Below are positions 6,458 to 34,206 of a DNA stretch of 36,934 bases, piece by piece. The first letter of the stretch is position 1. Each line of letters begins with the position of its first letter. The position numbers and the translations under genes are program-made. The stretch is from Polyangia bacterium (GTDB lineage: Bacteria > Myxococcota_A > Polyangia > Fen-1088): the NCBI GenBank assembly GCA_035577105.1, contig DATLVT010000217.1, positions 1 to 36,934 of the forward strand, in the 5' to 3' direction. Below the pieces are notes generated by a model. That model was not told the DNA's origin. It saw only the letters and a list, made by a program, of their open reading frames with translations, and searched no databases.

Positions 6458-6495
6458 CGCGCCGTTTCGCTGGCGCGCGCCGTTTTCCTGTCTGT

Positions 6496-12651: not shown

Positions 12652-13836
12652 TCAGGGCACGAAGATGGGGACGCAGGGGAAGACCGCTTCGATGTCGGTG
12701 ATCGTGCCGGCCATGACCTGGTCGCAATAGGACCCTTTGAGAACGATCGACGTCATGGTGGCGTCGCCATAGTCCCAACCGGCGGTGGCGTCTTTCGGGA
12801 TGACCGTGCCGCTGCTCTTGACCATCACCTTTTCCGCCATCGCGGGCGCCTTCTCCAGCTTGAATTCGCAGGAGGCGATCTTGCGCTGGATGGTCTTCAG
12901 CGTCGCGACGAGCTGATCGCTATTGGTCACCAGATAGTAGGCGGGTAACCCCGTCGCCATTTGCGGCCGGCCACCCGCGTTTGCCATGCTGGTGAGGGTG
13001 GCGTCCGCGCCGGTGTTGGTGGCGATGCCGACCACGAACACCGGGATGCCCTTGCCGGCGCTGTCCATGACGGCTGCGATGGAAGCAACCTCGTCGGCTT
13101 TTGACTGGTCGGGCACGGCGCCGGCGCAGTTGGGCAGACCGTCGGTGGCCAGAAGGATGTACTTGGGATTCGTGTCTGGCAGCGCGGTCAGATAGGCGGC
13201 AGCGCTGCTGACCGCGACAGCCGTGGGCGTGGCGGCGCCGTTCAGCGGTGGGACTGAATTGGTCATGGCCACGCCGATGGCGCCGGCGTTCTTGTCGCCG
13301 ATGGCGACCTTCGGCGCTGCGGCCGCGCCGCAAGCGCCGGTGTCCGGGAAGACCTTCAGGCCCCAGCGAATCGTGCTCTCGGTCTGGGTGACGACCTGAT
13401 TGATCGCCGAGGTGACCTGGGTCCATTTTTGCGACTGGACGCAGGCCGGAGTGGGCGTGGTGCCCGGGCAGGCCTGTCCGTTGGGCTGCTCCAGCATCGA
13501 TCCCGAGCGATCCAGGACCACCAGCAGGTCGGGCGGCGTTGATTCGAGTTTGAAGGTCTGCATTCCACAGGTGGGAACGTCGGTCGAGCCCCCATCGTCG
13601 CCGCCGCCGACGACGCCGCCGGTGCCGCTCGTGTCGGCGTCGACACCGCTGCCACCGGTGCCGATCACACCCCCGCTGCCTGGCAGGTCGCTGCCGCCGC
13701 TGCCGGAGCCAATCGCACCGCCGCCGCCGGTGTCACCGCCCGAGCCGGTGTCGCTGCCTTTGTTACCGCTCCAGCTGCATCCTCCCAGGACGAACACGAT
13801 CACAGAAGCCAGGACCCGTGCGTGCAAACGCTGCAT
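12652..13836 (-). CDS. Secreted von Willebrand factor A (VWA) domain lipoprotein
   Basis: Lipobox VLGGC, a Gly-rich linker, and the MIDAS motif LVVLDRSGSM (DxSxS). Confidence 0.8.
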   Translation of the reverse strand: MQRLHARVLASVIVFVLGGCSWSGNKGSDTGSGGDTGGGGAIGSGSGGSDLPGSGGVIGTGGSGVDADTSGTGGVVGGGDDGGSTDVPTCGMQTFKLESTPPDLLVVLDRSGSMLEQPNGQACPGTTPTPACVQSQKWTQVTSAINQVVTQTESTIRWGLKVFPDTGACGAAAAPKVAIGDKNAGAIGVAMTNSVPPLNGAATPTAVAVSSAAAYLTALPDTNPKYILLATDGLPNCAGAVPDQSKADEVASIAAVMDSAGKGIPVFVVGIATNTGADATLTSMANAGGRPQMATGLPAYYLVTNSDQLVATLKTIQRKIASCEFKLEKAPAMAEKVMVKSSGTVIPKDATAGWDYGDATMTSIVLKGSYCDQVMAGTITDIEAVFPCVPIFVP

Positions 13837-13998
13837 CGTCTCTCCGTCTCCAAAACAGGTGGTCTATGTTCTTAGTAACCGCCACCGAGACGAATCGCCA
13901 TGAAAATGCGGCGAATGGCACTTGCGCGGCCGGCAAGTGTGGTTATGCCGCGGCCATGTATGTGGGCGTGCGCGCGGGCGCGAACGTGCGGCGCGGGG

Positions 13999-14451
13999 CT
14001 AGCGAGGGCCGTCGGGATCGAGCAGGCGGCCGCGCACCGGAGCGGACGCCGCACCGACGGCGCGATCGCGATCGGGCTCGTCGCCCACCTCGATCTCGCA
14101 GTCGCCGAACTGCGCGCCGAACACGTCGCCGGTTCCCGGCGCGACCGCCAGGCCGCGCGCGCGGATCACCGTGTGATCCAGGACGCGGCCCGCGAGCTCG
14201 ATCTCATCGGCCTCCAGCAGTCCGCCCAGCGCTCCGCGCGACCGCAGGACGCCCGCTTTGATCTTGCCGGTCAGGGCGCCGGTCTCGGTCACCTCCACGG
14301 TGGGGCTGACCACGTCGCCCTCCAGTCGGCCTCTCACCAGGACGTGTCCGCTCGAGGCCAGCGTGCCCGAGAGCGCGCTGCCTTCCTCGACGATCGTATC
14401 CTTAGGCGGAGCGGCTGGCCCGGGGCTGACGGCGTTTGGGTCGTCTATCAT
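13999..14451 (-). CDS. Bactofilin (DUF583 polymer-forming cytoskeletal protein), copy 2
   Basis: TIVEEGSALSGTLASSGHVLVRGRLEGDVVSPTVEVTETGALTGKIKAGVL... shows the bactofilin beta-helix periodicity. The only start codon (ATG 14451) overlaps the upstream gene by 50 nt. Confidence 0.8.
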   Translation of the reverse strand: MIDDPNAVSPGPAAPPKDTIVEEGSALSGTLASSGHVLVRGRLEGDVVSPTVEVTETGALTGKIKAGVLRSRGALGGLLEADEIELAGRVLDHTVIRARGLAVAPGTGDVFGAQFGDCEIEVGDEPDRDRAVGAASAPVRGRLLDPDGPR

Positions 14452-15718
14452 CGGCGTCCTTCTCCTTGTCCTTGTCCCGGATGGCGCTGGCGCGGGCGAT
14501 GCGCAGGCGCAGGCGGCTCCCTTTTTCGAAGGCGAACCGCGTATCGCGCTCGTTCTGTTCCACGCTGGCCACCATTGCGCCCTGGCTGGTCACGCGCAGC
14601 GTACGGACGCCGATGATGCCGGGGCTGCGGCGCTGAAAGAAATGGCCGTGCACCGTGACGTCGCCGCCGCCGGTGATCTGGCAGCCGGCCAGAACCCCGG
14701 CCCGACCGATCACCAGCTCGGTGCCGGGCCCCAGGTTGATGACACAGTTCTCGAACAGGCTGTCGATCTCGACGCGCGCGCCGCCGTCGAAGGCCAGCGT
14801 GGCGTCGCGCAAAGTATCGCCACGCCCGAAGTAGCGCCGGTTGGCGCCGCCGCCGCCGATCTCGCCGGCCACGAAACCGCTGAGCAGGAAGGGGATCTCC
14901 GAATCGGTGAGGCGCGCGGCCCCGTCGCCCTCCGGGCTGGGATCAAGAAACGCCGCCTGCAGATCGGCGTCCAGGGCGGCGCCGGTGCCGATGAGACCCG
15001 CCACCTTGGCCCCGGTCAGGCAAGCCGCGCGCAGCGTGGCGCCGGTCAGCCGGGCGCGCCGCAGATCGGCCAGGCTGAAGTCGGTCTCTGACAGATCGGC
15101 GCGGCTGAGATCGGCCTTGACCAGCGATGCACCGCCCAGCTTGGCCCCGCGCGCCCGCACCTGGGTCAGCGAGGCGTCGTGAAACAATGCGCGGGTGAAG
15201 TCGCCTTGCACCATCGATGCGCCGCGCAGGCTGGCGTTGTTGAACTCGGCGCTGGCCGCCTTCACCCGATCCAGAGATGCGCCGGACAGGTCGGCGTGCA
15301 TGAGAGCGGCGTCGCGCAGATCGGCGCCCGTCAGGTTGGCACCCGCCAGCTGCGAGCGGCGAAGACGTGCGCCGGCCAGGTTCGCCCCGCTGAGGTTGGC
15401 CCCCTCCAGGTTGGCGCGGGTGAGGTCGGCGCCGATCAGCACCGCGCCCTCCAGGTTGGCCTTTTCCAGATCAGCGCTCTCCAGCCGGGCCTCACGCAGG
15501 TTGGCGCCGCTGAGGTTGGCTTCGCGCAGGCTGGCGTTCTTCAGGCTGGCGCCGCTGAGATCGGCGCCCCGCAGGTCGGCGCCGTCCAGATCGGCGCGCC
15601 CCAGCTCCGCGCCGGCCAGCGCGGCATTGCTGAGGTTGATGCCGCGCAGATCGGCGCGGTCCAGCTTTTCGCCACGCGCGAATCGCCGAAGGACGTCGGC
15701 GGGCGAAAGTTCTGCCAT
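14402..15718 (-). CDS. Pentapeptide-repeat protein (438 aa) with a distinct C-terminal beta-helix-like domain, copy 2
   Basis: About 250 aa of A(D/N)LxG-type pentapeptide repeats (ADLRGINLSNAALAGAELGRADLDGADLRGADL...). The ATG at 15718 overlaps the upstream bactofilin stop (TGATG). Collinear paralog of 16253-17569 with identical length. Confidence 0.85.
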   Translation of the reverse strand: MAELSPADVLRRFARGEKLDRADLRGINLSNAALAGAELGRADLDGADLRGADLSGASLKNASLREANLSGANLREARLESADLEKANLEGAVLIGADLTRANLEGANLSGANLAGARLRRSQLAGANLTGADLRDAALMHADLSGASLDRVKAASAEFNNASLRGASMVQGDFTRALFHDASLTQVRARGAKLGGASLVKADLSRADLSETDFSLADLRRARLTGATLRAACLTGAKVAGLIGTGAALDADLQAAFLDPSPEGDGAARLTDSEIPFLLSGFVAGEIGGGGANRRYFGRGDTLRDATLAFDGGARVEIDSLFENCVINLGPGTELVIGRAGVLAGCQITGGGDVTVHGHFFQRRSPGIIGVRTLRVTSQGAMVASVEQNERDTRFAFEKGSRLRLRIARASAIRDKDKEKDADDRRPKRRQPRASRSA

Positions 15719-16260
15719 CAGGTCGGCGTGCTGGAGTTGGCCGGCGCGGGACGCTCGGCCCCGGCGACCGGAGCGGCGGCGGCGACGAGAGCGGCGCTGT
15801 TCTCCTTGATAGCCGTTCCGGTGTGCCCGGCGCCCGAGGCCAGCGCTTCGCGCAGGGCCGCCTCCTTGGCCGGCACCTCGCCGATTTGCAGCTCGCAGTC
15901 GAAGAGCTCGACGGCCAGCGCCCCGGTCCCAGTTCCGGTCCCAGTTCCGGTCTTGGGCGGAACAACCTCCAACGTCTTGGCGATGATCACCGTCTCGTCG
16001 CGGACGCGACCGCACAGGATCACGTCGTCGGCCTCGAAGGTCCCGGTCAAGTCACCCTTCGAGCGCAGCTCGGTGACCTTGACCTGACCGTCGACGGTGC
16101 CGCTCTCGGCGACGTCCAGCGACGGCCCGGTGATCTCGCCCTCGACCTGGCCGCGCACCAACACGGCGCAGTTCGCCGACAGCGTCCCTTTGAAGGCGGT
16201 GCCCTCTTCGATGACGGTCTTCTTTTCTGGCGCCGGGCGCGCGTTGCCTCTGTCAGCCAT
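15718..16260 (-). CDS. Bactofilin (DUF583), copy 1, with a (Thr-Gly)5 insert and an Ala-rich tail
   Basis: TVIEEGTAFKGTLSANCAVLVRGQVEGEITGPSLDVAESGTVDGQVKVTEL... is a bactofilin repeat pattern. The start overlaps the upstream pentapeptide gene by 8 nt (ATGGCTGA). Confidence 0.85.
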   Translation of the reverse strand: MADRGNARPAPEKKTVIEEGTAFKGTLSANCAVLVRGQVEGEITGPSLDVAESGTVDGQVKVTELRSKGDLTGTFEADDVILCGRVRDETVIIAKTLEVVPPKTGTGTGTGTGALAVELFDCELQIGEVPAKEAALREALASGAGHTGTAIKENSAALVAAAAPVAGAERPAPANSSTPT

Positions 16261-17569
16261 GGGTTAACCGCCCTTCCTGTCTTTCTTTTGCTTTTGCTTT
16301 TGCCTTGGCTTCGGCTTCCGCTTCACTGCTGCTGGCCTTCATGACCTTGAGACGCAGGCGGCAGCCCCGTTCGAAGGCGAACCGGGTGGGCGTGGCCGCC
16401 TGTTGCACCGACGCGTCCAGCGCGCCGCGCCCGGTGACCACCAGGGCGCGTGGTCCGACGATCCCGGGGCGTTCGCGCTCGAAAAATTGTCCGTGCACGG
16501 TGATGTCGCCGGCGCCCGAGATCTGACAGTCGGCCAGCACGCCCGACTGACCGACCACGACGGCCGCCCCCTCGCCCAGGACGATCGAGCAGTTTTCAAA
16601 GACGCTGTCGATCTCCACCTTGGCGCCGGCGGTGAACTCCAGCGTGGCGTTGCGCAGGATGTCTCCGCGCCCGAAATAACGTCGGTCGCCGGCCGGCCTG
16701 TCGCGGGTGCCGGCTCCTGGCGCGCGGGCGCCGCCTAGCAGGGCCGGGATCTCGCCGTCGGTGACGCGGGCGGAGCCGTTTCCTTCCGGGCTGGCGTCGA
16801 CCCAGGTGACCTGCAGATCGCCGACGTTGGCGCTGCCGCCCATCACGCCGGCAACCTTGGCGCCGGTCAGCGTGGCGCCTTGAAAGACCGTGCCGGCCAG
16901 GTGCGCCTGCCGAAGATCGGCGTTGGCCAGGTCAGCCTTGGAGAGATCGGTGCGCGTCAGGTCGGCCTTGCGCAACACCGCGCCGCCCATCTTGGCGCCG
17001 GTGGCCCGTGCCTCGACCAGCTGCGCGTCCAGGAATTGCGCGCGCGTGAAATCACCGCCGGTCAGCGTGGCGGCGCGCAGGTTGGCCCCGGTGAAGTCCG
17101 CGGCGGTCGCCTTGACGTTGCCGAGGTGCGCCTCCGCCAGCTCGGCGTGCACCAGGATCGCTTCCCGCAGGTCGGCGCCGGTCAGGTTCGCCGTCCCCAG
17201 CTGGGCGAATCCCAGGCGCGCGCCGGTCAGCGTGGCCCCGGTCAGGTTGGCCCCCTCCAGGTTGGCGCGCAGCAGGTTGGCGCCGGCCAGGTTGGCGCGC
17301 TCCAGGTTCGCCTCTTCAAGGTCGGCGCATTCAAGATTGCACTCGCGCAGGTCGGCGCCGATCAGGTGGGCCTCGCGCAGGTTGGCGTTCTTCAGCACGG
17401 CGCCGCGCAGGTTGGCGCCCTCCAGGTTGGCCCCTTCCAGATCAGCCCGGGCCAGCGCCGCCGACGGCAGGGGCGCCTTCGCCAGATCGATCCCGCGCAG
17501 GTCGGCGCGCTCCAGTTTCTCGGCGCGCCGGAACCTCTCCAAAACCTGATCACGGGTCAGCTCGGCCAT
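16253..17569 (-). CDS. Pentapeptide-repeat protein (438 aa) with a distinct C-terminal beta-helix-like domain, copy 1
   Basis: ADLRGIDLAKAPL...ADLEGANLEGANLRGAVLKNANLREAHL... repeats. GGAGA lies 7 nt upstream of the ATG at 17569. C-terminal (EA)3(KA)4 tail. Confidence 0.85.
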   Translation of the reverse strand: MAELTRDQVLERFRRAEKLERADLRGIDLAKAPLPSAALARADLEGANLEGANLRGAVLKNANLREAHLIGADLRECNLECADLEEANLERANLAGANLLRANLEGANLTGATLTGARLGFAQLGTANLTGADLREAILVHAELAEAHLGNVKATAADFTGANLRAATLTGGDFTRAQFLDAQLVEARATGAKMGGAVLRKADLTRTDLSKADLANADLRQAHLAGTVFQGATLTGAKVAGVMGGSANVGDLQVTWVDASPEGNGSARVTDGEIPALLGGARAPGAGTRDRPAGDRRYFGRGDILRNATLEFTAGAKVEIDSVFENCSIVLGEGAAVVVGQSGVLADCQISGAGDITVHGQFFERERPGIVGPRALVVTGRGALDASVQQAATPTRFAFERGCRLRLKVMKASSSEAEAEAKAKAKAKERQEGRLTHG

Positions 17570-20208: not shown

Positions 20209-20949
20209 ATGCCGCCGTTGGCTGTTTGGCAGTGGATCTTGGGCGCGGTGTGCGGCCTGTTCGTCGGGATCGCCAAGAGCGGCGTGCCGGGATTCGGGAT
20301 CGCCGTGGTGCCGCTGATGGTGATGGTGGTCGGCAACGCGCGCGCCTCTGCCGGCTGGCTGTTGCCGATGCTGTGCACGGCCGATCTGTTCGCCATCGCC
20401 TATTACCGCCGCCACGCCCAGGCGCGACGGCTGTTCGACCTGGCGCCCTGGGTGCTGGTGGGCATGGGGGCGGGGACGGTGGCGCTGGGGTGGGGTGAAT
20501 CGGTCCTGCGTCCCATCATCGCGGCCGTGGTGCTGACCATGATCGGCGCGCACCTCTGGCGAAAATGGCGCCAGCAGGTCGGGGTGCCAACCGGGTGGTC
20601 GCACAGCGCGCGCTATGGCGTGCTGGCTGGATTCGCCACCACGGTGGCCAACGCCGCCGGGCCGGTGATGAACGTCTACCTTCTGTCCAAACGCCTGCCC
20701 AAGGAAGAGTTCGTGGCGGCCGGCGCCTGGTTTTTTTTCCTGATCAACCTCAGCAAGCTGCCCATCTATCGCTGGCGCGGGATGATCACGGCGCGGTCGC
20801 TGCTGTTCGATCTCTTGATGCTGCCGGCGGTGGCCCTGGGGGCGATGGTGGGCCGCAAGGTGGTCCGGCGTCTGGCCCAGACCACGTTCGAGGTGGCGGT
20901 GCTGGCCCTGACCGCCGGCGCGACGCTGCTGTTGTTCTTACCCCGCTGA
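20209..20949 (+). CDS. TauE/SafE (DUF81) family anion-exporter membrane protein
   Basis: Multi-TM protein with GLFVGIAKSGVPGFGIAVVPLMV, typical of the family. ATG at 20209 is preferred over GTG at 20191. Confidence 0.75.
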   Translation: MPPLAVWQWILGAVCGLFVGIAKSGVPGFGIAVVPLMVMVVGNARASAGWLLPMLCTADLFAIAYYRRHAQARRLFDLAPWVLVGMGAGTVALGWGESVLRPIIAAVVLTMIGAHLWRKWRQQVGVPTGWSHSARYGVLAGFATTVANAAGPVMNVYLLSKRLPKEEFVAAGAWFFFLINLSKLPIYRWRGMITARSLLFDLLMLPAVALGAMVGRKVVRRLAQTTFEVAVLALTAGATLLLFLPR

Positions 20950-20970
20950 ACGGCGCGGCCGAGGCCGCGG

Positions 20971-22653
20971 CTACGAAGCCGGCGGTGGGGGCGGGCCTGG
21001 CGTACTGGGTGGTGACGGCGTGGCGGTGGCTGGCAGACCTCGACGGGCCATCACCTGTTCAAAGCTGGCGCGCAGACCGGGGACGTTGGCGGCCAGCAGA
21101 CCGAACTCGCGCTTGGGGATGCTGAGCACGGTCATCGCGTCCAGGCACCGAACCGTGGCGTTGCGGGGCGCGCTGCCGAGGAGGGCCATCTCGCCGAAGC
21201 ATTCGCCGGGGCCCAGCGTGGTCAGCACCTGCTCGCCGCCGCGCTCGCCTTTGCTGTTGTCGCCCGGGACGGCGAGGTGTCTGCGCACCACCTCGGCCTT
21301 GCCGGACAGGAGGATGTAGACGCGATCGCCCAGCTCGCCTTCGTTGAACACCGTCTGACCCGGTTCGAAATGTTCGTGCGTGGCGCCGCCGCTGGCGCCC
21401 AGGCGCAGCTGGATCAGCTCCGTCGGCAGGATCAGGTCCAGCGTCCACGAGCTGGCCACCTTGAGCCGCCGGCCCCAGCCGGGGAGCTTTGACAGATAGA
21501 TCGTCCGCCACAAGAACCAGGCCAGAAAGCCGGAGATCCCGATGCCGAAGATCTCGGCCACGGCGTTGCGTCGCCCCAGCGAGCCCATCTTGCCCAGCCC
21601 CTTGAAGTCAAAGGCGCGCAGCCCGCCGCCGTTGATGGTGGCGACGATGTTGTCGGCGACCAGGTGGGCCTGGCGGGTGGCGTGCTGGGCCGTGGGCGGG
21701 CAGGGCGTGCCGTCGGCGGTGGGCACCGACGCGCAGTCGCCCACCGCCCAGACGTCTGGCCGGCCTTGCACCCGCAGGTTGGCGTCGACGATGAGGCGGC
21801 CATTCTTCGTCTTCGGCAACGGCAGCGTGTCGACCAGCGGGTGCGGCGACGACGGGATGGTCGAGACCAGCGTGCGCGTCGGGATGGCGCTGCCATCCGA
21901 CAGGATGGCTGCTTCGGCGGTGGCCGCCTTCAGGCGCTGGTTCAGCACCAGCTCGACGCCGCGCCGGCGCAAGATCTTGGCGGCGAAGGCGCGCAGCTTG
22001 GGGGCTACCTCGGGGAGGATTTCGCCTTGTCCGTGCACCAGCACCACACGAATGTCCGCGGGGTTGATGCGGCGATAGAGGCGGGCGATGCCGCGCACGA
22101 AATCGTTCAGCTCGGCCACCACCTCGACGCCGGAGAAACCACCGCCTGCCACGACGAAGGTCAGGAGCTGCTTGCGCAGGACCGGGTCGTCGTCCTCGAT
22201 GTCGGCCTCCTCCAGGGCGCGGATGGCGCGGGCGCGCAGCTCCAGGGCGTCGGACAGGTTCTTGAACGGAAGGGCGTGCTCGGGCAATCCTGGCAGACCC
22301 CGAAAATCGGTGACGGTGCCAGGCGCCAGCACCAGGTGATCGTAATGTTCGACGTGGGCGTGCGGGCGGAAGCCGGGGGCGGCGCTGATGGTCTGGTTGG
22401 CGATGTCGATCGACTCGACGTCCCGGACCACCACGTGCGTGCGGCGCAGCAGCCGGCGCAGCGGGCTGACCACATCGGTGAGCCCGATGGTTCCGGAGAT
22501 CACCTCGGGCAGCATCGGCTGAAACACAAAGTAGTTGTCGCGGCTGAAAAGAAGGATCTCCCAGTCGTCGCGCCGGCCCAGCTTGCGCTCCAGCGCCTGC
22601 GCGGCGTAGACGCCGGCGAATCCGCCTCCCACCACCACGATGCGCTTTCTCAT
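20971..22653 (-). CDS. Type II NADH dehydrogenase (NDH-2, FAD/NAD(P) oxidoreductase) fused to a C-terminal cyclic-nucleotide-binding domain
   Basis: Two Rossmann motifs (IVVVGGGFAGVY and VVAGGGFSGVE). After a membrane-proximal segment, a CNB domain follows: FNEGELGDRVYILLSGKAEV...GECFGEMALLGSAPRNATVRCLD. Confidence 0.85.
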   Translation of the reverse strand: MRKRIVVVGGGFAGVYAAQALERKLGRRDDWEILLFSRDNYFVFQPMLPEVISGTIGLTDVVSPLRRLLRRTHVVVRDVESIDIANQTISAAPGFRPHAHVEHYDHLVLAPGTVTDFRGLPGLPEHALPFKNLSDALELRARAIRALEEADIEDDDPVLRKQLLTFVVAGGGFSGVEVVAELNDFVRGIARLYRRINPADIRVVLVHGQGEILPEVAPKLRAFAAKILRRRGVELVLNQRLKAATAEAAILSDGSAIPTRTLVSTIPSSPHPLVDTLPLPKTKNGRLIVDANLRVQGRPDVWAVGDCASVPTADGTPCPPTAQHATRQAHLVADNIVATINGGGLRAFDFKGLGKMGSLGRRNAVAEIFGIGISGFLAWFLWRTIYLSKLPGWGRRLKVASSWTLDLILPTELIQLRLGASGGATHEHFEPGQTVFNEGELGDRVYILLSGKAEVVRRHLAVPGDNSKGERGGEQVLTTLGPGECFGEMALLGSAPRNATVRCLDAMTVLSIPKREFGLLAANVPGLRASFEQVMARRGLPATATPSPPSTPGPPPPPAS

Positions 22654-22698
22654 CTGCCGCGTGCCCTTTCTCGCCCGTCGGGATCTTCGTGCGCCACA

Positions 22699-22725
22699 GT
22701 TACGTCCGCCGACGCGCGCGGTTAC
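22699..22725 (-). promoter_or_regulatory. Candidate ECF (SigF-type) promoter of the NDH-2/cNMP gene: GTAACC-N15-CGTAAC
   Basis: On the minus strand the -35 GTAACC is at 22725-22720, the spacer is 15 nt, and the -10 CGTAAC is at 22704-22699. The -10 ends 45 nt before the ATG at 22653. Same architecture as the three other sites in the window. Confidence 0.55.
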
Positions 22726-22743
22726 GGGGATAACCGACGGTGC

Positions 22744-24831
22744 TCATTTCGATGCGGCCACCCAGGTGCCATCCCAGTCGGCCGGTGGCGGCTCCTGTTT
22801 CCAGTGCCGGCATCGATCGGCCAGGACGGCGCCCGCCGCATCATCGGTCAGCGGCGCCAGAAGGTCGAGCGCCTCCTGGAATTCGCGGCGGTGGGCGGCA
22901 GCCAGCGCATCTTCATATGGCTTCAGCCTGGCCAGGCGCCGGGTGGCCAGGGGATCGCCGGCGACGCCCAGCAGTTCGAAGATGAAGATCGATTGGTTGC
23001 GTCCCTTGACGGCCACCCGATCCAGGCGGCGAAACAGAAACTGCTCACCGACGCGGTCGCGGATCTCCTCGCTGACCAGGATGGTGGTGCCGTAGACCTT
23101 GTTGAGGCCTTCCAGGCGGGCGGCCAGGTTCACGCCGTCGCCCATCGCGGTGTAACTGAGCCGGTCGGGGGCGCCGAAATGCCCGACCATCACCTGGGCG
23201 GCGTGCAGGCCAAAGCGGGTGCGCCACGGCGCGAGACCGGCCTTCTGCCACCACGGCGATCGCCCCAGCTCGTCGGTGGCGGCGTCGCAGGTCAGGGCGG
23301 CCCGGCAGGCGGCCACCGCGTGGTCCGCGACGGGATCGGGCGCGTTCCAGATCACCATCAGCGCGTCGCCGATGTACTTGTCGACGGTGCCGCCCAGCCC
23401 CTCGACGGCGGCGGTGGCCGCCTGCAGATACCGGCCGAGAGCGTCGGCCAGCAGGGGCGGGGGCAGCTTTTCGGCGTGGCTGGTGAAATCGGCGATGTCG
23501 GTGAACATCAGCGACACATCCAGAAGGTCGGCGCCCAGCACGGGGTCGCGTCCGCTTTCGTAAAGGCGCCTGACCAGGCCGACCGGGACGTATTTCACCA
23601 TCGCCCGCAAGGCGGTCTTGGCGCGTTCCACGCTGCCCAGCGCGCCCCGCACCTCGCCGAAGGGCGACTGCACGGGCGCGGCGTCGAAGGTGAAGCGCCG
23701 CATTCCCTCGGTGGCCGTCACCAGGGCGCGCATGCCCCGACCGACGGTGCGCGCGCCGCCCAGCCCGACGGCCGCGATGACCAGCACGACCAGCACCATC
23801 AGGCCCAGCAGGCGATCGCGCGCGTGGGCGATGGCGCCGACATAGGCGCTGGCGGGGACGACGATCCCGACCAGCCACTGCTGGGCCCGCCCCTGGGCGA
23901 CCGGGACCAGGGTGACGAAGTAGGGTTCACCGTCGACGTCGAGGCGCGCGCCGCCCACCGCTCCGCCGCGCGCCAGAGCCAGCGCGGCCTGGACCGGCGG
24001 CGGGATCGTGGCGGGGACCACGCGCAGATCGCCGTCGGGATCGGGGCGGCCGTCCTCGTCGACGGCGGTGTACAGATCGGCCTTTTGCAGGCGGGTGACC
24101 AGCCGTCCCCCGGCGTCGCAGATGAAGAGGCGATGGGGATCGTCGCCGCTCTTCATCGACGCAAAGCGGTCCAGCGTGTCGCTGGTGATCCCGGCGCGCA
24201 AGACGCCCACGAATTTGCCCTGGGGATCAAAGATGGCCTTCTGAACCGTCATCACCTTGCGGCGCAAGCCGGCGGTCAGCGCGGCATCGCCCTCGCGATA
24301 GGAGAGGTCGCTCCACAGACTGCGCCCCCGCCACTCCTGATGAGCGGCGGCGCGAAAGGTGTCGTGACGGGTCGGATCGGCCGCGCTGTCGGCGGCCACG
24401 TCGGTCAGCAGGCGCCCGCCGATCTGGCCGTCATGCTCGCGAAAGACGGCGATCTGTCGGCGGCCCTGGGCCCACAAGACCATGGTCCCGTCGTCCTCGT
24501 AACGTTTGAAGAGCCCGCTGGTCAGGGTCAGGTCGGTCAGACCGCGCAGGGCAATCAACTCGGCGGTCAGATAGCGACGGACGGCGAGCGGATCTCCGAC
24601 GACCACGGCCCCCACGGTCAGCGCCTGCTCGAAATCAGCGACCGCCCTTTCGGCGGTGCCCAGATCGGATTCCAGCGCGGCGGCGATGCGGGTGGCGGTG
24701 TCGTGGCGCGCGCTCTCGCCGACCTTGATCACCGCCTGGTTGGCGGTGCGCACGGCCACCAGCAGCACGGCGCCCGCCAGCAGGGCCAGCGCCACCACGA
24801 CGAACGCGAAGAAGCGCGGCAGCGTCAGCAC
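22744..24831 (-). CDS. Membrane sensor class III adenylate/guanylate cyclase (TM - periplasmic Cache-like region - TM - HAMP - cyclase)
   Basis: Two TM segments flank about 300 aa, followed by a HAMP-like linker. Cyclase motifs are VSLMFTDIADFTSHAE, VDKYIGDALMVIWNAP and GDGVNLAARLEG. GTG start lies 16 nt after the anti-sigma stop. Confidence 0.85.
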   Translation of the reverse strand: MLTLPRFFAFVVVALALLAGAVLLVAVRTANQAVIKVGESARHDTATRIAAALESDLGTAERAVADFEQALTVGAVVVGDPLAVRRYLTAELIALRGLTDLTLTSGLFKRYEDDGTMVLWAQGRRQIAVFREHDGQIGGRLLTDVAADSAADPTRHDTFRAAAHQEWRGRSLWSDLSYREGDAALTAGLRRKVMTVQKAIFDPQGKFVGVLRAGITSDTLDRFASMKSGDDPHRLFICDAGGRLVTRLQKADLYTAVDEDGRPDPDGDLRVVPATIPPPVQAALALARGGAVGGARLDVDGEPYFVTLVPVAQGRAQQWLVGIVVPASAYVGAIAHARDRLLGLMVLVVLVIAAVGLGGARTVGRGMRALVTATEGMRRFTFDAAPVQSPFGEVRGALGSVERAKTALRAMVKYVPVGLVRRLYESGRDPVLGADLLDVSLMFTDIADFTSHAEKLPPPLLADALGRYLQAATAAVEGLGGTVDKYIGDALMVIWNAPDPVADHAVAACRAALTCDAATDELGRSPWWQKAGLAPWRTRFGLHAAQVMVGHFGAPDRLSYTAMGDGVNLAARLEGLNKVYGTTILVSEEIRDRVGEQFLFRRLDRVAVKGRNQSIFIFELLGVAGDPLATRRLARLKPYEDALAAAHRREFQEALDLLAPLTDDAAGAVLADRCRHWKQEPPPADWDGTWVAASK

Positions 24832-24847
24832 GACGCGCCTGACTTCA

Positions 24848-25561
24848 TCAGCGCTCGAGCAGGCTGGGCAGCAGCGCGGCGCCGGCCGCCGCCGCCAGGA
24901 TCATCCCGCCCACGTGGGCCAGCACCACGTGATCGGTGCCGGCGAACGGGCAGATGAAATGCAACGTCAGCCCGCCCAGCGCGCCGCCCGCCGCGCCCAG
25001 GCCCATGCCCAGCCAGCGGGCCCCCACCGGCATCAGCCGCCGCAGGACCAGAAAACTGACCAGCAGCAAAACGCCGGAGACGCGAAAGACGTAGCTGATG
25101 CAGTGCAGGCACGAATCAAACAGCGTCCACCCGCGATCGGCGGGGACCATGCTGACGCCCGGGACCTGGACGGTGAAGAACAGCCCGAAGAAGAACACCA
25201 CCAGGATGGCCAGAAAGCTGATGCGCGAGGCGCGGCTGGCGCCGGGTAGAACGTCCCCGCGCCGCGGGATCAGCGCCGCCGCCAGCGACAGCACGAAGGC
25301 GGCGCCCCACAGCACCGCGCCCACGACCACCCAGATGCGAGGAAGCACCGCCAGGTCGGGACGCATGGGCCGCAGCAGCATGGTCAGCGTCGGCCAGATC
25401 AGGCCCGCCACCAGGACCACGGTGAAGGCGCCGAACCGGGAACGCATGCGCACGGGCCGCATGCCCTCGACGGCCTTGATCAGCATGGGCGCCGGTGGGG
25501 GGGGCGGGGTTCCGTCGAACCCCGAGCCCACGCCGCGGCCATTTGCGTCGTGCACGCTCAT
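24848..25561 (-). CDS. NrsF/DUF1109-family membrane anti-sigma factor
   Basis: Six-TM-like protein with Cys/His-containing segments (DSCLHCISYV and LHFICPFAGTDHVVLAHVGG). The ATG overlaps the sigma gene stop (ATGA at 25558-25561). Confidence 0.7.
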   Translation of the reverse strand: MSVHDANGRGVGSGFDGTPPPPPAPMLIKAVEGMRPVRMRSRFGAFTVVLVAGLIWPTLTMLLRPMRPDLAVLPRIWVVVGAVLWGAAFVLSLAAALIPRRGDVLPGASRASRISFLAILVVFFFGLFFTVQVPGVSMVPADRGWTLFDSCLHCISYVFRVSGVLLLVSFLVLRRLMPVGARWLGMGLGAAGGALGGLTLHFICPFAGTDHVVLAHVGGMILAAAAGAALLPSLLER

Positions 25562-26154
25562 GCGAGATCGATGTCCTCTTCGCCTTCGCCGCTCTTGCCC
25601 AGCAGCACCCGAAGCGTGACGTAGGCGCGGTGCGCGCGCAGCTTGATCGCGCCCGGCGTGCTGCCGGCGATCTGGGCCGCCTCGGCGTGGGACCGGCCGT
25701 GCACCTTGGTCAGGATCAGCGCCTGCCGCTGTTTCTCGGGCAAGTGTTGCAGAGCGGCCATGGCGGCGGCCGCGCGCGCAGACTCTGGCTGCGCCTGGGC
25801 CTCCTCTGCGGTGCCGCTGAGGTCGGCGCGCGGCGGCGACGGCAGCTGTCCGTCGACGGTCAGGCGAACGCGGCTGCGCTTGCGCTTGCGCAGCTCGTCC
25901 AGGCAGGTGCGGTGGGCAATCGTGTAGATCCACGGGATGGGATTGGCGCCGCGCACGTACGCGCCGCGGGCTTCGTGCACCTTGAGGAACGTGTGCTGCA
26001 ACAGATCCTCGGCCGCCGCCCGATCACCGATCAGGCCGCGCAGGTAGGCGAGGATCCGCGGCGCCAGCATGGCGTACAGGCGATGGAACGCAGCCACCTC
26101 GCCCGCGCAATAGCGCTCCATGACCTGGCTGGCTTCGAGGGACTCGGGATCCAT
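25558..26154 (-). CDS. ECF-type RNA polymerase sigma-70 family factor (SigF/ECF16-like by its anti-sigma partner)
   Basis: Region 2 (DLLQHTFLKVHEARGAY...WIYTIAHRTCLDELRKR) and region 4 (LPEKQRQALILTKVHGRSHAEAAQIAGSTPGAIKLRAHRA). ATG at 26154; an alternative start is at 26121. Confidence 0.85.
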   Translation of the reverse strand: MDPESLEASQVMERYCAGEVAAFHRLYAMLAPRILAYLRGLIGDRAAAEDLLQHTFLKVHEARGAYVRGANPIPWIYTIAHRTCLDELRKRKRSRVRLTVDGQLPSPPRADLSGTAEEAQAQPESARAAAAMAALQHLPEKQRQALILTKVHGRSHAEAAQIAGSTPGAIKLRAHRAYVTLRVLLGKSGEGEEDIDLA

Positions 26155-26380
26155 GGATCGCAGTCGATACCTGGTTGCTCCGCCAATTTCGGGTGATTCG
26201 CCGCTCCGGTTCGCTGTCGTGTGGCCGGTCTGGTTGGCGTGTCTGATAGGTCCGTTCTGTCCGTTGTGCCAGATCCACCAGGCCGGCCAGCACAGCGTGC
26301 CACCCTGTCTCAGCAGAGGAGGATGGAAGAGTGCCGCTGCGATCACAAGAAATTCCTGCTGGCGACGACGCTGGGCCTCG

Positions 26381-26878
26381 TCAGGTTCCGGGACGCAGGG
26401 CTGGGCTGGGCAGCGCCGCCTGGGCGCCTCTCTTGCCGCGCACCCGGGAGATCAGCGCATCCAGCGACAGCGGTCCTGCGCCGGCTACAGCCAACCACAC
26501 GAACAGGACCAGATAGCTCCACTCCTCGAACCCGAACAGCGAAGTGAAATCATTGATGTCATCTCGCTTGGCGGTGATGATGGCGATGACCATGGTGAAA
26601 GCCAAGGGCAGGGCGACCAGCCGCGTGCCGAGGCCCAGGAGGATCAAGATGCCGCCGAAGAACTCCGTGCAGGCGGTGAGGCGCGCGTTGAAACCGGGCA
26701 TGGGGATCCCGAGATCAGTGAAGAACTGGGTGACCTTGTCCAGGCTGTGCAGCTTGCCCCAGCCGGTACCGATGAAGACGATGCCCACGGTCAGGCGGGC
26801 CAGCGTCGGACCCAGGAAAGATAACTTGTCGCCGATGGCGCGCAGACGTCCGAGCAGATTCGTGATCAGATTGGGCAT
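26381..26878 (-). CDS. DoxX-family membrane protein
   Basis: LARLTVGIVFIGTGWGKL...FFTDLGIPMPGFNARLTACTEFFGGILILLGLGTRL is a classic DoxX pattern. ATG at 26878 with GGAGGG 8 nt upstream. Confidence 0.85.
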   Translation of the reverse strand: MPNLITNLLGRLRAIGDKLSFLGPTLARLTVGIVFIGTGWGKLHSLDKVTQFFTDLGIPMPGFNARLTACTEFFGGILILLGLGTRLVALPLAFTMVIAIITAKRDDINDFTSLFGFEEWSYLVLFVWLAVAGAGPLSLDALISRVRGKRGAQAALPSPALRPGT

Positions 26879-26900
26879 CAATCGTCCCTCCAGTGGGTGT

Positions 26901-26927
26901 TCTACGGCGCCACTTGCCTGAGGTTAC
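26901..26927 (-). promoter_or_regulatory. Candidate ECF (SigF-type) promoter of the doxX-sigma-antisigma(-cyclase) operon: GTAACC-N15-CGTAGA
   Basis: On the minus strand the -35 GTAACC is at 26927-26922, the spacer is 15 nt, and the -10 CGTAGA is at 26906-26901. The -10 ends 22 nt before the ATG at 26878, with an SD in between. Confidence 0.6.
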
Positions 26928-26944
26928 GGAAAAAGAAAGCCAGC

Positions 26945-26971
26945 GTAACCCGTGGGAAGGCGCGGCGTAGA
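26945..26971 (+). promoter_or_regulatory. Candidate ECF (SigF-type) promoter of the GH63 / debranching-enzyme / DUF1223 operon: GTAACC-N15-CGTAGA
   Basis: On the plus strand the -35 GTAACC is at 26945-26950, the spacer is 15 nt, and the -10 CGTAGA is at 26966-26971. The first possible start codon (ATG 26979) follows only 7 nt later. Confidence 0.6.
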
Positions 26972-26978
26972 GCCCACA

Positions 26979-29821
<2,843 letters not shown>

Positions 29822-29825
<4 letters not shown>

Positions 29826-31858
29826 GCCGCGCCGAGCAGGAGTGGCTGGAGACCGACGGGCTGGGGGGATTTGCCTCGGGCCCGGTGACCGGCCCGCGCC
29901 GCCGCCGCTATCACGGCCTGCTGGTGGCGGCCACGGCGCCGCCCACCGGCCGCATGATGCTGGTCAGCGGGTTCGAGGCAACGGTCGACACGCCGGGGGG
30001 ACGGTTCCTGCTGTCGGCGCAGCGCTATGCGCCGGACGTCGTCACCGGCGACGGCGAGCGCAACATCGAATCGTTCACCAGCGATCCGTGGCCGTCGTGG
30101 GTCTTTCGGCTGCCCGACGGCACCCGCATCGCCCACGAGCTGTTCATGCGTGCCGGCGCGCCGCAGATCTATCTGTCGTGGCGGCTGCTGGCCGGCTCGC
30201 GCGCCCCGTCGCCGGCGCCCGAGCTGGTCTGGGCGCGGCTGCGCGTGCGTCCTTTGCTGGCCGGCCGAGATTTTCACGCCTTGATGCACGAGAACCCGGC
30301 CTTCTGCTTCGATCCCGAGATCAAAGGCGGCCAGTTTCGCTATCGTCCCTACGCCGGAGGGACGTCTGTCGTCGTCGCGGCCAGCGGCAACTACCAGCAT
30401 CAGCCGTACTGGTTTCGAAACTTCGTCTACGACGAGGAGCGGCGCCGCGGGCTGGATTTCACCGAGGATCTGGCGTCGCCAGGCGAATGGGAGTTCGAGC
30501 TGGGCGAGGGCGAAGCGAGCATGATCTTTGGCGCCGAAACGCCCGGACGCGCGCCCGCCTTGGTCGCCGCCCCGGCGCGCGAGGCGCTGGAGGCGGCGCG
30601 TACGGCCGAGCGGGCGCGCCGCGCGGGATTCCCCACGCGCCTGGAGAGATCGGCCGATCAGTACCTGGTGGCGCGGCGGAGCGGGCGCACCATCATCGCC
30701 GGGTATCCGTGGTTCGGTGACTGGGGGCGCGACACGTTCATCGCCATGCGCGGTCTGTGTCTGGCCACCGGACGCGTGACGGAGGCGGTTGACGTGCTGG
30801 CGGCGTGGGCGCCCACCGTCTCGCAAGGGATGCTGCCCAACTACTTCGCCGACGCCGGCGGCGCGCCCGAGTACAACACCGTGGACGCGTCGCTGTGGTA
30901 CGCCGTGGTGGTCGCCGAGACGATTGCCGCGGCGGGTGCCACGCTGGGCGCCGAGGTCGCGCGCCAGCTGCGTGAGGCCGTCGAGGCGATCCTCGCCGGG
31001 TACGCCGCCGGCACCCGTTACGGCATCCGCGCCACCGACGACGGTCTGCTGGCGGCCGGCGTGGCCGGTCAGCAGTTGACCTGGATGGACGCCCGCGTCG
31101 ACGGCCGCGAGATCACCCCCCGCATCGGCAAGCCGGTCGAGGTGCAGGCGTTGTGGCTGAACGCGCTGGCGGCCGGCGCCGTCTTGCAGACGCCGTCGGG
31201 CGCGCGCTGGACGGAGCTGCTGGCCCGCGGCCGGCGCAGCTTCGAGCGGCGCTTCTGGAACGAAGCGCGCGGGTGTCTGTACGATGTGGTCGACGTCGAT
31301 CATCAGCCGGGGGCCGTCGACGCCCGCTTGCGCCCCAATCAGATCCTGGCCGTCGGGGGATTGCCGCTGGCGCTGCTGTCAGGCGATCGCGCTCGCCGTG
31401 TCGTCGAGGTGGTGGCCGCGTCGCTGCTGACGCCGCTGGGGCTGCGGTCGCTGGCGCCGGGGGAGAACGACTATTGCCCGCGCTATGAAGGCGGCGTGGT
31501 CCAGCGCGACGGCGCCTATCATCAAGGGACGGTCTGGCCCTGGCTGATCGGGCCTTTTGTCGAGGCGTACCTGCGGGTGTACGGCGGCGGGGCCGCCGAC
31601 AGGCGTGCCGCGCGCGAACGGTTCGTCCAGCCGATCCTGCGCCACCTGGACGAGGCCGGCCTGGGTCATGTCTCCGAGATCGCCGACGCCGAGCTGCCCC
31701 ACACGCCGCGCGGCTGTCCGTTTCAGGCCTGGTCGCTGGGAGAGCTGCTGCGTCTGGAACGAACGGTTCTCGCCGACGGGCGCGTGGCCCGCGGCGGTGA
31801 CCTCACCCGCGACGTGGCGTCGACCGCGGCGGTGGAATCGCCGACGGAGGGGCCATGA
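29822..31858 (+). CDS. Glycogen-debranching-enzyme-type amylo-alpha-1,6-glucosidase (GDE_N + GDE_C)
   Basis: [30 protein letters not shown]-terminal signature, plus [14 protein letters not shown] and [13 protein letters not shown] (alpha/alpha)6 motifs. The GTG start overlaps the upstream stop (GTGA at 29822-29825). Confidence 0.85.
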
Positions 31859-33844: not shown

Positions 33845-34105
33845 CTATTTCTTTTCTTCGCCGGCGGCGCCGACGGTGCCGCCCTTGGCCTTGCACTGCT
33901 TCTCGGACATCTCCGTCCAGCCTTTGCCCTTGCAGCCGTTCTGGCCCTTGCACGCGTTGTCGGCGCCCTTGCAGCCGCCCTTGCCCTTGCACGCGTTGAC
34001 GCCTTCACAGTGAACCTTGCCGGCCGTCTTGGCGGAGACCACGGCCGGAGCCGCGGCCAGGAAACCGGCGGCCATCGCTGCGATCAGTGCACCCTTCGTC
34101 GTCAT
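33845..34105 (-). CDS. Secreted 6-Cys Lys/Gly-rich small protein, bufferin-like (BufA2 / 6-Cys class RiPP-precursor-like)
   Basis: Sec signal peptide MTTKGALIAAMAAGFLAAAPAVVSA. Core is VHCEGVNACKGKGGCKGADNACKGQNGCKGKGWTEMSEKQCKAKGG, with 6 Cys in repeated CKGxxxC spacing. AAGGAG lies 7 nt upstream of the second ATG (34105). Confidence 0.7.
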   Translation of the reverse strand: MTTKGALIAAMAAGFLAAAPAVVSAKTAGKVHCEGVNACKGKGGCKGADNACKGQNGCKGKGWTEMSEKQCKAKGGTVGAAGEEKK

Positions 34106-34179: not shown

Positions 34180-34206
34180 CCTACGCCGTCCCCGGCAGAT
34201 GGTTAC
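34180..34206 (-). promoter_or_regulatory. Candidate ECF (SigF-type) promoter of the 6-Cys peptide gene: GTAACC-N15-CGTAGG
   Basis: On the minus strand the -35 GTAACC is at 34206-34201, the spacer is 15 nt, and the -10 CGTAGG is at 34185-34180. The -10 ends 74 nt before the ATG at 34105. Confidence 0.55.

Follow-up and report, generated by a model that had tools for sequence, protein, structure and literature searches.

Enzymes of the NDH-2 family are drug targets and have been proposed as replacements for complex I. Two described systems come closest to the protein considered here: the EF-hand NDH-2s, as precedents for messenger sensing, and mycobacterial Pat, as a precedent for the fusion of a bacterial enzyme with a cyclic-nucleotide-binding (CNB) domain. 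Our protein is encoded on contig DATLVT010000217.1 of a Polyangia bacterium, a soil myxobacterium (GenBank assembly GCA_035577105.1), the whole analysed stretch of which, 36,934 nucleotides, is called the window below. It is a predicted NDH-2-family NAD(P)H:quinone oxidoreductase of 560 aa with a C-terminal CNB domain (20971..22653, minus strand), and its gene follows that of a membrane adenylate cyclase of 695 aa (22744..24831, minus strand), with 90 bp between the stop codon of the cyclase and the ATG of the fusion gene. An earlier interpretation of the DNA (hereafter the sequence-only reading) regarded the pair as producer and putative receiver of a cyclic nucleotide; the gene coordinates, the spacings, the FGEMALLGSAPRNATV cassette of the CNB domain and the promoter-like site GTAACC-N15-CGTAAC were all recovered exactly as it had described them.

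In the Ca2+-regulated external NAD(P)H dehydrogenases of plant and fungal mitochondria, an NDH-2 likewise contains a built-in second-messenger sensor, namely an EF-hand (PMC5299459). These enzymes are eukaryotic, respond to Ca2+ and carry the EF-hand as an insertion that separates the GD motif from helix alpha-7, whereas the bacterial protein described here has the CNB domain appended after the membrane anchor. Pat (Rv0998/MSMEG_5458) is likewise a bacterial enzyme in which a fused CNB domain serves as a direct, non-transcriptional receptor of cyclic AMP (cAMP), and a weak CNB-level match of the fusion protein to the Pat model of NCBIfam was obtained; however, the catalytic domains are unrelated, and the CNB domain of Pat is N-terminal. 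The solved NDH-2s share with the fusion protein the fold (TM-score of approximately 0.8), the GxGxxG motifs, the catalytic Glu, the GD pair, the AQxAxR variant of the quinone motif and the amphipathic anchor, but none of them has a CNB domain. A large survey of NDH-2s left out sequences with fused N- or C-terminal domains (PMC5299459), so the fused clade was not analysed there. Our search of the open-access full-text literature found no description of an NDH-2/CNB protein, in agreement with the earlier statement that no characterised NDH-2 regulated by a cyclic nucleotide was known. Databases already contain the sequence family, naming its members only 'NADH dehydrogenase' or 'FAD-dependent oxidoreductase'; the family is uncharacterised, and the hypothesis of its regulation developed below is specific and testable.

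The genomic setting of the gene pair also has a described counterpart. In Caulobacter, the sigma-F site has been experimentally mapped as GTAACC-N16-CGAA, NrsF is the anti-sigma factor and DoxX belongs to the regulon (PMC3511200), which constitutes the core copper-stress response (PMC11626156). The window resembles this system in having an NrsF-family anti-sigma factor translationally coupled to an extracytoplasmic function (ECF) sigma factor, together with DoxX; unlike the Caulobacter regulon, it has a cyclase in the sigma operon, an NDH-2/CNB gene and GH63-like and glycogen-debranching genes.

The NDH-2/CNB fusion protein and its nucleotide pocket

Annotation with Pfam matched all three domains first read from the DNA, that is, the NDH-2 core and the CNB domain of the fusion protein and the class III domain of the cyclase. 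In the fusion protein, Pyr_redox_2 covers residues 4-329 (5.7e-37) and NDH2_C (PF22366) residues 354-404 (29.6 bits, cut-off 27.7), and sequence motifs and Pfam together delimit a catalytic core with a C-terminal amphipathic membrane-anchor region at residues 4-404 (21442..22644, minus strand). By sequence, the PDB entries that match the protein best are NDH-2s (mycobacterial 9mqy at 1e-46, C. thermarum 4nwz and S. aureus 5na1). When the AlphaFold2 (AF2) model of the protein (predicted local distance difference test, pLDDT, of 77, with a core above 90) was compared with the PDB in Foldseek, the top 27 matches were all NDH-2s, with target TM-scores of 0.64-0.84 and E-values down to 9e-30. Comparison with the conserved elements listed for 1762 NDH-2s (PMC5299459) located both GxGxxG motifs (G9/G11/G14 and G170/G172/G175, the latter with catalytic E177 as GxGxxGxE), the YD pair, the GD pair G305-D306 and the quinone motif A322-Q-H-A-T-R327, which is the AQxAxR variant of AQxAxQ that occurs in 15% of NDH-2s (PMC5299459). 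Across the family, the second-domain GxGxxGxE is invariant in 81/81 members and the GD pair is also invariant, and the first GxGxxG is invariant in the N-terminally complete sequences except for one Ala at G14. The anchor region aligns to the C-terminus of mycobacterial NDH-2, and AF2 places helices at 375-387 and 393-408, with low pLDDT. Pfam, motifs and fold search agree with the original description of a CNB domain fused C-terminally to an NDH-2-type enzyme with two Rossmann folds and a membrane-proximal segment, and, judging from the sequence, the protein probably has NAD(P)H:quinone oxidoreductase activity.

At the C-terminus lies a genuine CNB domain (residues 427-538; 21040..21375, minus strand), for which cyclic-nucleotide binding is predicted. 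The sequence-only reading had allowed that this region might fail to match CNB profiles; instead, cNMP_binding (PF00027) matches residues 427-518 (79.4 bits, cut-off 27.5; E 2e-22), and the CNB part matches the CNB domains of PKG, PKA-R, CRP and Epac in a PDB sequence search. The phosphate-binding cassette (PBC; 21145-21198, with FGEMALLGSAPRNATV at residues 486-501) has the consensus FGEmAlL....R.AtvRC in 81 family members, among which the Gly is conserved in 80, E488 in 80 and R497 in 79; the domain itself is kept in all 80 related loci. The Glu and Arg of the PBC contact the ribose 2'-OH and the cyclic phosphate and are not usually retained in CNB folds that have other ligands. Their conservation thus argues for cyclic-nucleotide binding over a degenerate or re-purposed fold. 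The Asn that follows the PBC Arg, where Ser or Thr is usual, had been singled out earlier; we rejected it as a specificity clue, since this position varies freely in the family (Asn in 33 of the 81 members, Ser in 24, Gly in 15, Thr in 4, Met in 2 and Trp in 1). Two residues past the cassette (ATVRC), position 503 (21145-21147, minus strand) is Cys in 74/81 members, where typical CNB domains have Ala, and a redox-sensitive role of C503 near the ligand site is conceivable.

Related loci were collected from species-representative genomes, in which 80 loci (those designated L below) were retained out of 486 confirmed matching stretches. All 80 carry the fusion, and they belong to at least eight phyla, including Myxococcota, Acidobacteriota, Ignavibacteria/Bacteroidota, Planctomycetota (with the anammox genus Kuenenia), Lindowbacteria, Rokubacteria and Binatota; among them is a cultured organism, Labilithrix luteola DSM 27648 (L051; fusion orthologue in NZ_CP012333.1 at approximately 7,100,200-7,101,723), in which the fusion gene is likewise paired with a cyclase gene. 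At least 120 clusters at 64-95% identity were retrieved from 5.8 billion proteins, and every one of them combines PF07992 with PF00027. When the junction and CNB domain were used as the query against 50%-identity representatives, 65 matches at E<=1e-30 were obtained, and approximately 100 of the best 150 matches spanned the whole junction, near positions 345-540; the fusion family thus comprises dozens of 50%-identity clusters. Some members are far longer than 560 aa (P0121, 806 aa; P0124, 794 aa; P0213, 1465 aa; P0252, 911 aa), with the NDH2_C/CNB junction at a great distance from the N-terminus or with additional sequence behind it, so the family includes proteins with further fused domains. 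In two Terriglobales loci, a second CNB-like segment occurs approximately 500 bp upstream of the NDH-2/CNB coding region (L072, 8001-8267; L080, 1-252), which could be an extra N-terminal CNB domain or a separate small CNB gene.

The fused proteins differ from the solved NDH-2s in the pocket for the nicotinamide nucleotide as well. NADPH is excluded by a Glu or Asp located where the second beta-strand of the NADH domain ends (E198 in C. thermarum; PMC5220320), and the WxxG motif, which is 99-100% conserved in 1762 NDH-2s, adjoins the adenine of NADH (PMC5299459). In the window protein, the slot of the NADH-specifying acidic residue is occupied by H207, aligned with E198 of 4nwz and the Asp of 9mqy, and S264-T265-I266-P267 stands in for WxxG, aligned with VVWTGG of 4nwz and VWSAG of 9mqy. 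The His is found in 81/81 members of the fused family, and the S-T-x-P signature is nearly as constant (Ser 78/81, Thr 81/81, Pro 81/81). Because both features hold across the family, the fused proteins form a clade of their own in which the adenosine pocket has been remodelled; and because two near-universal features of the NADH pocket are replaced in them, the best label is a divergent NDH-2-family clade. A built-in control for these clade-specific changes is provided by a Blastocatellia genome (L018), in which a canonical, CNB-less NDH-2 paralogue (13607-14905, plus strand; 433 aa; 42% identity) sits 4 kb downstream of the fusion gene; the His and S-T-V-P of the fused clade correspond to the usual Glu and WGAG in this paralogue.

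These substitutions suggest that electrons may come from NADPH, or from both nucleotides, and not from NADH alone; a specificity for NADPH or for both can reasonably be supposed but is unproven. Among the EF-hand enzymes of plant and fungal mitochondria, some use NADPH and have lost the acidic residue. Hence, although the assignment to the NDH-2 family made in the sequence-only reading stands, its wording of 'NADH' and 'respiratory electron entry' is doubtful.

A related possibility, which we consider rather unlikely, is that the protein is an NADPH-using stress reductase acting on quinones, or detoxifying metals or quinones, which still binds cAMP but serves redox defence and not respiratory entry, for example by keeping the quinone pool reduced or by reducing Cu(II) or Cr(VI). 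The invariant H207 in the C. thermarum E198 slot, the replacement of WxxG by S-T-[VI]-P and the canonical paralogue close to the fusion in L018 all speak for such an enzyme, as do an Arg four residues past the His in 61/81 family members, the response of the counterpart regulon of Caulobacter to Cu, Cr and Cd, and the neighbouring genes in L081 (glyoxalase, GMC oxidoreductase and DoxX). However, the window protein has Glu and not Arg at that position (211) and keeps the quinone motif, the catalytic residue (Glu177) and the membrane anchor of an NDH-2; moreover, His alone is no proof of NADPH use, and the family also occurs in phyla with no visible sigma-F link. This alternative largely refines the idea of a cAMP-controlled quinone reductase.

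The adjacent adenylate cyclase

The cyclase gene encodes, in order, a first transmembrane helix (TM1), a Cache-like sensor, a second transmembrane helix (TM2), a helical linker, a class IIIb domain and a helical C-terminal extension of approximately 70 aa. The catalytic domain (residues 438-614; 22990..23520, minus strand) is matched by Guanylate_cyc (PF00211; 6e-14, 52.5 bits, cut-off 21.9), and alignment to CyaB of P. aeruginosa (3r5g) and CyaC of Spirulina (1wc1) located all six class III catalytic residues in one chain: the metal-binding Asp pair in FTDIADFT and DKYIGDA, the substrate-specifying Lys in DKYIGDA and Thr in YTAMGDGVN, and the transition-state Asn and Arg. Of these positions, D445, K485, D489, N568 and R572 are invariant among the cyclase orthologues, and the AF2 model aligns with CyaC and CyaB at Foldseek TM-scores of 0.86-0.89. 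The membrane cyclase with a class III catalytic domain postulated at the outset is thereby confirmed. Since the Lys/Thr pair is that of adenylate cyclases, cAMP is the likely product, and a homodimeric class IIIb adenylate cyclase is to be expected from these residues. The protein differs from CyaB and CyaC in the Cache-like periplasmic region between its transmembrane helices and in its C-terminal extension (residues 627-695; 22744-22950, minus strand), a helical segment that is conserved among orthologues, has the near-invariant end PPPxDWDGTWVAxSK and is matched by no Pfam family.

The large periplasmic sensor of the sequence-only reading corresponds to a predicted periplasmic region of approximately 310 aa between the two predicted transmembrane helices (residues ~28-340; 23812..24750, minus strand), in which dCache_1 scores 27.1 bits, below the 45-bit cut-off, and PF02743 is annotated in a minority of 120 cyclase homologues. 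In the AF2 model (pLDDT 86), TM1 runs into a long helix that is followed by two alpha/beta modules (98-326) and by TM2, which extends to residue 378; beyond TM2, a 13-residue connector and two further helices lead to the catalytic domain and the helical extension. Foldseek results for the whole model were dominated by the catalytic domain and gave no independent signal for a Cache fold, so that the designation Cache-like comes from the sub-threshold Pfam match, the annotation of some homologues and the predicted topology. The linker that follows (residues 363-432; 23536..23745, minus strand) had been called a HAMP domain, and this label was dropped. Pfam gave no HAMP match at E<=1, PF00672 was found in none of the 120 annotated homologues, a profile of the cyclase family gave no HAMP match at E<=10 among PDB sequences, and hhalign against the Af1503 HAMP returned a probability of 0.25%; only the size and the helix-connector-helix topology of residues 363-412 (a helix, a 13-residue connector and a helix, at pLDDT 62-70) fit.

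The pairing of cyclase and fusion gene was examined in other genomes with a hidden Markov model built from cyclase domains, which was run over 911 kb of flanks at 81 loci, the expectation being taken from the rest of the flanks. Sixteen cyclase domains were found, ten of which end within approximately 1.1 kb upstream of the fusion gene; an upstream cyclase is thus present at 10/81 loci against 0.91 expected (Poisson, 4.5e-8). The adjacent cyclases represent at least five non-orthologous architectures and, when each is counted once, p=0.002. They occur in Myxococcota, Acidobacteriota and Rokubacteria, mostly on the same strand as the fusion gene: a form with a Cache-like domain between two transmembrane helices and a IIIb domain (the window, L001, L010 and L051), a multi-transmembrane IIIa form with a Lys/Asp pair (L012, where it is divergently oriented, L014 and L022), a multi-transmembrane IIIb form (L036), a soluble form with a Cys-rich N-terminus (L011) and a Rokubacteria form with a C-terminal extension (L076). 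The adenylate-type Lys is present in all of them except that of L076 (3-791, plus strand), directly upstream of the fusion, which has Glu at this position (INEFIGDA) and an extension of approximately 100 aa and whose open reading frame (ORF) is truncated at the end of the contig. The pairing thus recurs more often than chance would allow but is optional, and the adjacency that the sequence-only reading expected to be conserved in related genomes is enriched but missing from most loci, several close Polyangia relatives included.

The adjacency might nevertheless be coincidental, such that the CNB domain senses cell-wide cAMP or another ligand, or is only structural or dimerising, while the cyclase serves other targets; we consider this improbable. 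The 71 of 81 loci that have no adjacent cyclase favour it, and the fusion is kept in sigma-F islands that are free of cyclases (L008 and L081); moreover, cAMP is diffusible, so a dedicated producer is not required. Set against this are the ten-fold enrichment of cyclases immediately upstream, the occurrence of five unrelated architectures in the same position in three phyla and mostly on the same strand, the near invariance of the PBC Glu and Arg, and the pair in L010, which stands alone and has a sigma-F promoter of its own on each gene.

Clustering of the other flanking ORFs revealed no neighbour that spans phyla. DoxX and GH63/GDE genes were found as neighbours mainly in Myxococcota; tblastn with the window DoxX gave matches in 10/80 loci. 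DoxX-family genes also stand beside the fusion outside Myxococcota, in L014 (7028-7477, minus strand), where a further DoxX-like ORF was recognised by eye, L028 (9692-10102) and L044 (3111-3503), and this recurrence hints at a functional tie to the quinone reductase independent of sigma-F. In a Pyrinomonadaceae-type group (cluster 15: L027, L030, L031, L033, L041, L025 and L022), a gene resembling a major facilitator superfamily transporter with 12 transmembrane helices lies on the same strand and ends 15-300 bp upstream of the fusion gene, of which it is a lineage-specific operon partner.

Sigma-F-type promoters and the surrounding genes

The cyclase gene is the last of a minus-strand operon that begins with doxX (26381..26881; DoxX-family membrane protein, PF07681, 9.4e-24) and continues with the ECF sigma factor (25558..26154, with a start at 26154 or 26121; Sigma70_r2 and Sigma70_r4_2 in Pfam and ECF models in NCBIfam) and the NrsF-type (DUF1109) membrane anti-sigma factor (24848..25561; PF06532, 51.4 bits, cut-off 26.8). 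The ATG of the anti-sigma gene overlaps the stop codon of the sigma gene (ATGA), and the cyclase gene starts with GTG 16 nt past the nrsF stop. No terminator-like site was found in the window between the cyclase and NDH-2/CNB genes, and a convergent TauE-family gene closes the cluster beyond the latter.

A promoter of the sigma-F (ECF) type, GTAACC-N15-CGTAAC, ends 45 nt before the start codon of the NDH-2/CNB gene (22699..22725, minus strand), and this string occurred 0 times in 100 shuffles. A scan of the window with the relaxed pattern GTAACC-N14-18-CGWA returned four sites against 0.12 expected, all with N15 and CGTA and all preceding genes, 10-76 nt before the start codon. Apart from the NDH-2/CNB copy (22701-22725 under this pattern), they lie before the doxX-sigma-nrsF-cyclase operon (26903..26927, minus strand), before a GH63-like hydrolase gene that is followed by a glycogen-debranching gene (26945..26969, plus strand, divergent) and before the gene of a Cys-rich secreted peptide of 85 aa (34182..34206, minus strand), the last two being outside the cAMP module. 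The site before doxX implies autoregulation of the operon that ends in the cyclase gene. Relative to the Caulobacter sigma-F site, the spacer is 1 nt shorter and the -10 element is CGTA, not CGAA; the number of sites and their Caulobacter-like consensus support the earlier proposal that the cyclase and the NDH-2 fusion are under the same ECF sigma factor. The NrsF protein of the window has Cys151, Cys154 and Cys204, which may include counterparts of C131 and C181 of the Caulobacter protein.

In other Myxococcota, the motif lies upstream of the fusion orthologue at five loci (L001, L003, L008, L010 and L061), and Labilithrix (L051) has a near-match, GTAACC-N15-CGCA. In L010, where no sigma gene lies close by, the cyclase and the fusion gene each have their own sigma-F motif; in L008, the fusion gene comes immediately after sigma-nrsF; and in L081, sigma-nrsF closes an operon that comprises the fusion together with HbpS/cupin, SGL, glyoxalase and GMC-oxidoreductase genes. 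The divergent promoter pair beside doxX is conserved in L001 and L004-L006. That the GTAACC-N15-CGTA sites go unused, the genes being expressed constitutively or from other promoters, is very improbable: Caulobacter sigma-F is not strongly autoregulated under metal stress (PMC3511200), and the motif was not found at loci outside Myxococcota, but the four sites far exceed expectation, share identical spacing, all lie upstream of start codons and are kept at orthologous positions in other genomes, and no sigma-70-like promoter was found in 20700-27100.

The two back-to-back promoters share one intergenic region of 100 nt (26903-26969). The plus-strand copy ends 10 nt before the ATG of the GH63/MGH1-like glycoside hydrolase (26979-29825, plus strand), which may act on a glycan or a compatible solute and whose transcript would have almost no leader; the next genes encode a glycogen-debranching enzyme (29900-31858, plus strand) and a DUF1223 protein, and a GH63-like and DoxX pair also flanks the sigma island in L081. 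The peptide behind the fourth promoter (33848-34105, minus strand) has a signal sequence and repeated C-x-G-x-N-x-C-K-G units, and its composition resembles that of the bufferin-type metallophore precursors of the Caulobacter sigma-F regulon. Its identification as a DUF2282 bufferin precursor was rejected, since Pfam gave no DUF2282 match and only a weak one to DUF7640 (E 0.028); no DUF692/MNIO or DUF2063 gene lies beside it, and of the Caulobacter-type DUF2282-DUF692-DUF2063(-DoxX) bufferin operon, Pfam found only DoxX in the window. The rest of the window contains no phosphodiesterase or CRP-type regulator; it encodes Ser/Thr kinases and pentapeptide-repeat, VWA and solute-binding proteins. 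Two Ser/Thr protein kinases, one of them with DUF4388, and two adjacent pentapeptide-repeat proteins are located at 4889-8589 and 14405-17569; these are ordinary for Myxococcota and have no evident link to the cAMP module.

A proposed cAMP switch on quinone reduction

From the domains identified in the two proteins, their catalytic and ligand-binding residues, the promoter motifs and the recurrent placing of a cyclase next to the fusion, we infer a sigma-F/NrsF island of the metal/thiol stress type that contains a two-gene cAMP signal-effector module, with a cAMP-controlled NAD(P)H:quinone oxidoreductase as the effector; in our judgement, the odds of this interpretation being correct are even. 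Stress would free the sigma factor from the membrane anti-sigma factor NrsF, and the sigma factor would then transcribe the doxX-sigma-nrsF-cyclase operon and also the NDH-2/CNB gene, which has its own promoter of this type. The homodimeric class IIIb cyclase would convert an extracytoplasmic signal, perceived by its periplasmic Cache-like domain, into cAMP, which would bind the CNB domain attached approximately 20 residues after the amphipathic membrane-anchor helices and thereby change the rate of electron transfer from NAD(P)H to quinone. By analogy with other CNB-enzyme fusions, we favour activation by relief of autoinhibition, which might act via membrane docking, quinone access or dimerisation. 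Pat is activated by relief of autoinhibition, and for the NDH-2/CNB protein this can be only an analogy. The sequence-only reading had suggested stress-induced, cyclic-nucleotide-dependent tuning of NADH:quinone oxidoreduction, and the domains, residues, promoters and adjacency are consistent with this suggestion in its essentials, whereas NADH as the donor is doubtful and the adjacency is not a rule.

Besides the many loci that have the fusion and no adjacent cyclase, several observations weigh against the proposed module. Cyclases are numerous in Myxococcota, which raises the odds of accidental adjacency there, and, with Glu in the L076 cyclase, the partner in that lineage may produce cGMP. 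The sigma-F motif near the fusion gene was not found outside the Myxococcota loci, so the stress wiring is lineage-specific. Furthermore, in the AF2 model of the fusion protein (predicted TM-score 0.64), the anchor (354-377), the linker (408-422) and the PBC (489-497) are all below pLDDT 50; the interdomain contacts are not trustworthy, and the allosteric route proposed above is thus purely inferred.

The hypothesis concerns a single flavoenzyme that should be expressible in soluble form and can be followed by a simple spectrophotometric assay, and a cultured host, Labilithrix luteola DSM 27648, is available; an NDH-2 that is switched by a ligand in nature might in addition be useful as a tool. 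For the family as a whole, we tentatively suggest, with somewhat less than even confidence, that the fused proteins are widespread quinone reductases of the respiratory-chain type that are switched directly by cAMP, with neither a transcription factor nor a kinase in between, have a pocket that accepts NADPH, have been paired repeatedly in several phyla with dedicated sensor cyclases, so that a complete module leads from the signal via cAMP to the redox state of the quinone pool, and, in Polyangia, have been recruited to the sigma-F metal-stress regulon. To our knowledge, the effects of cAMP on respiration have so far been known mainly through transcription (CRP) or mitochondrial PKA. If the proposal is true, cAMP would control a quinone-reducing dehydrogenase by direct allostery, which would be a new kind of link between this second messenger in bacteria and the electron-transport chain.

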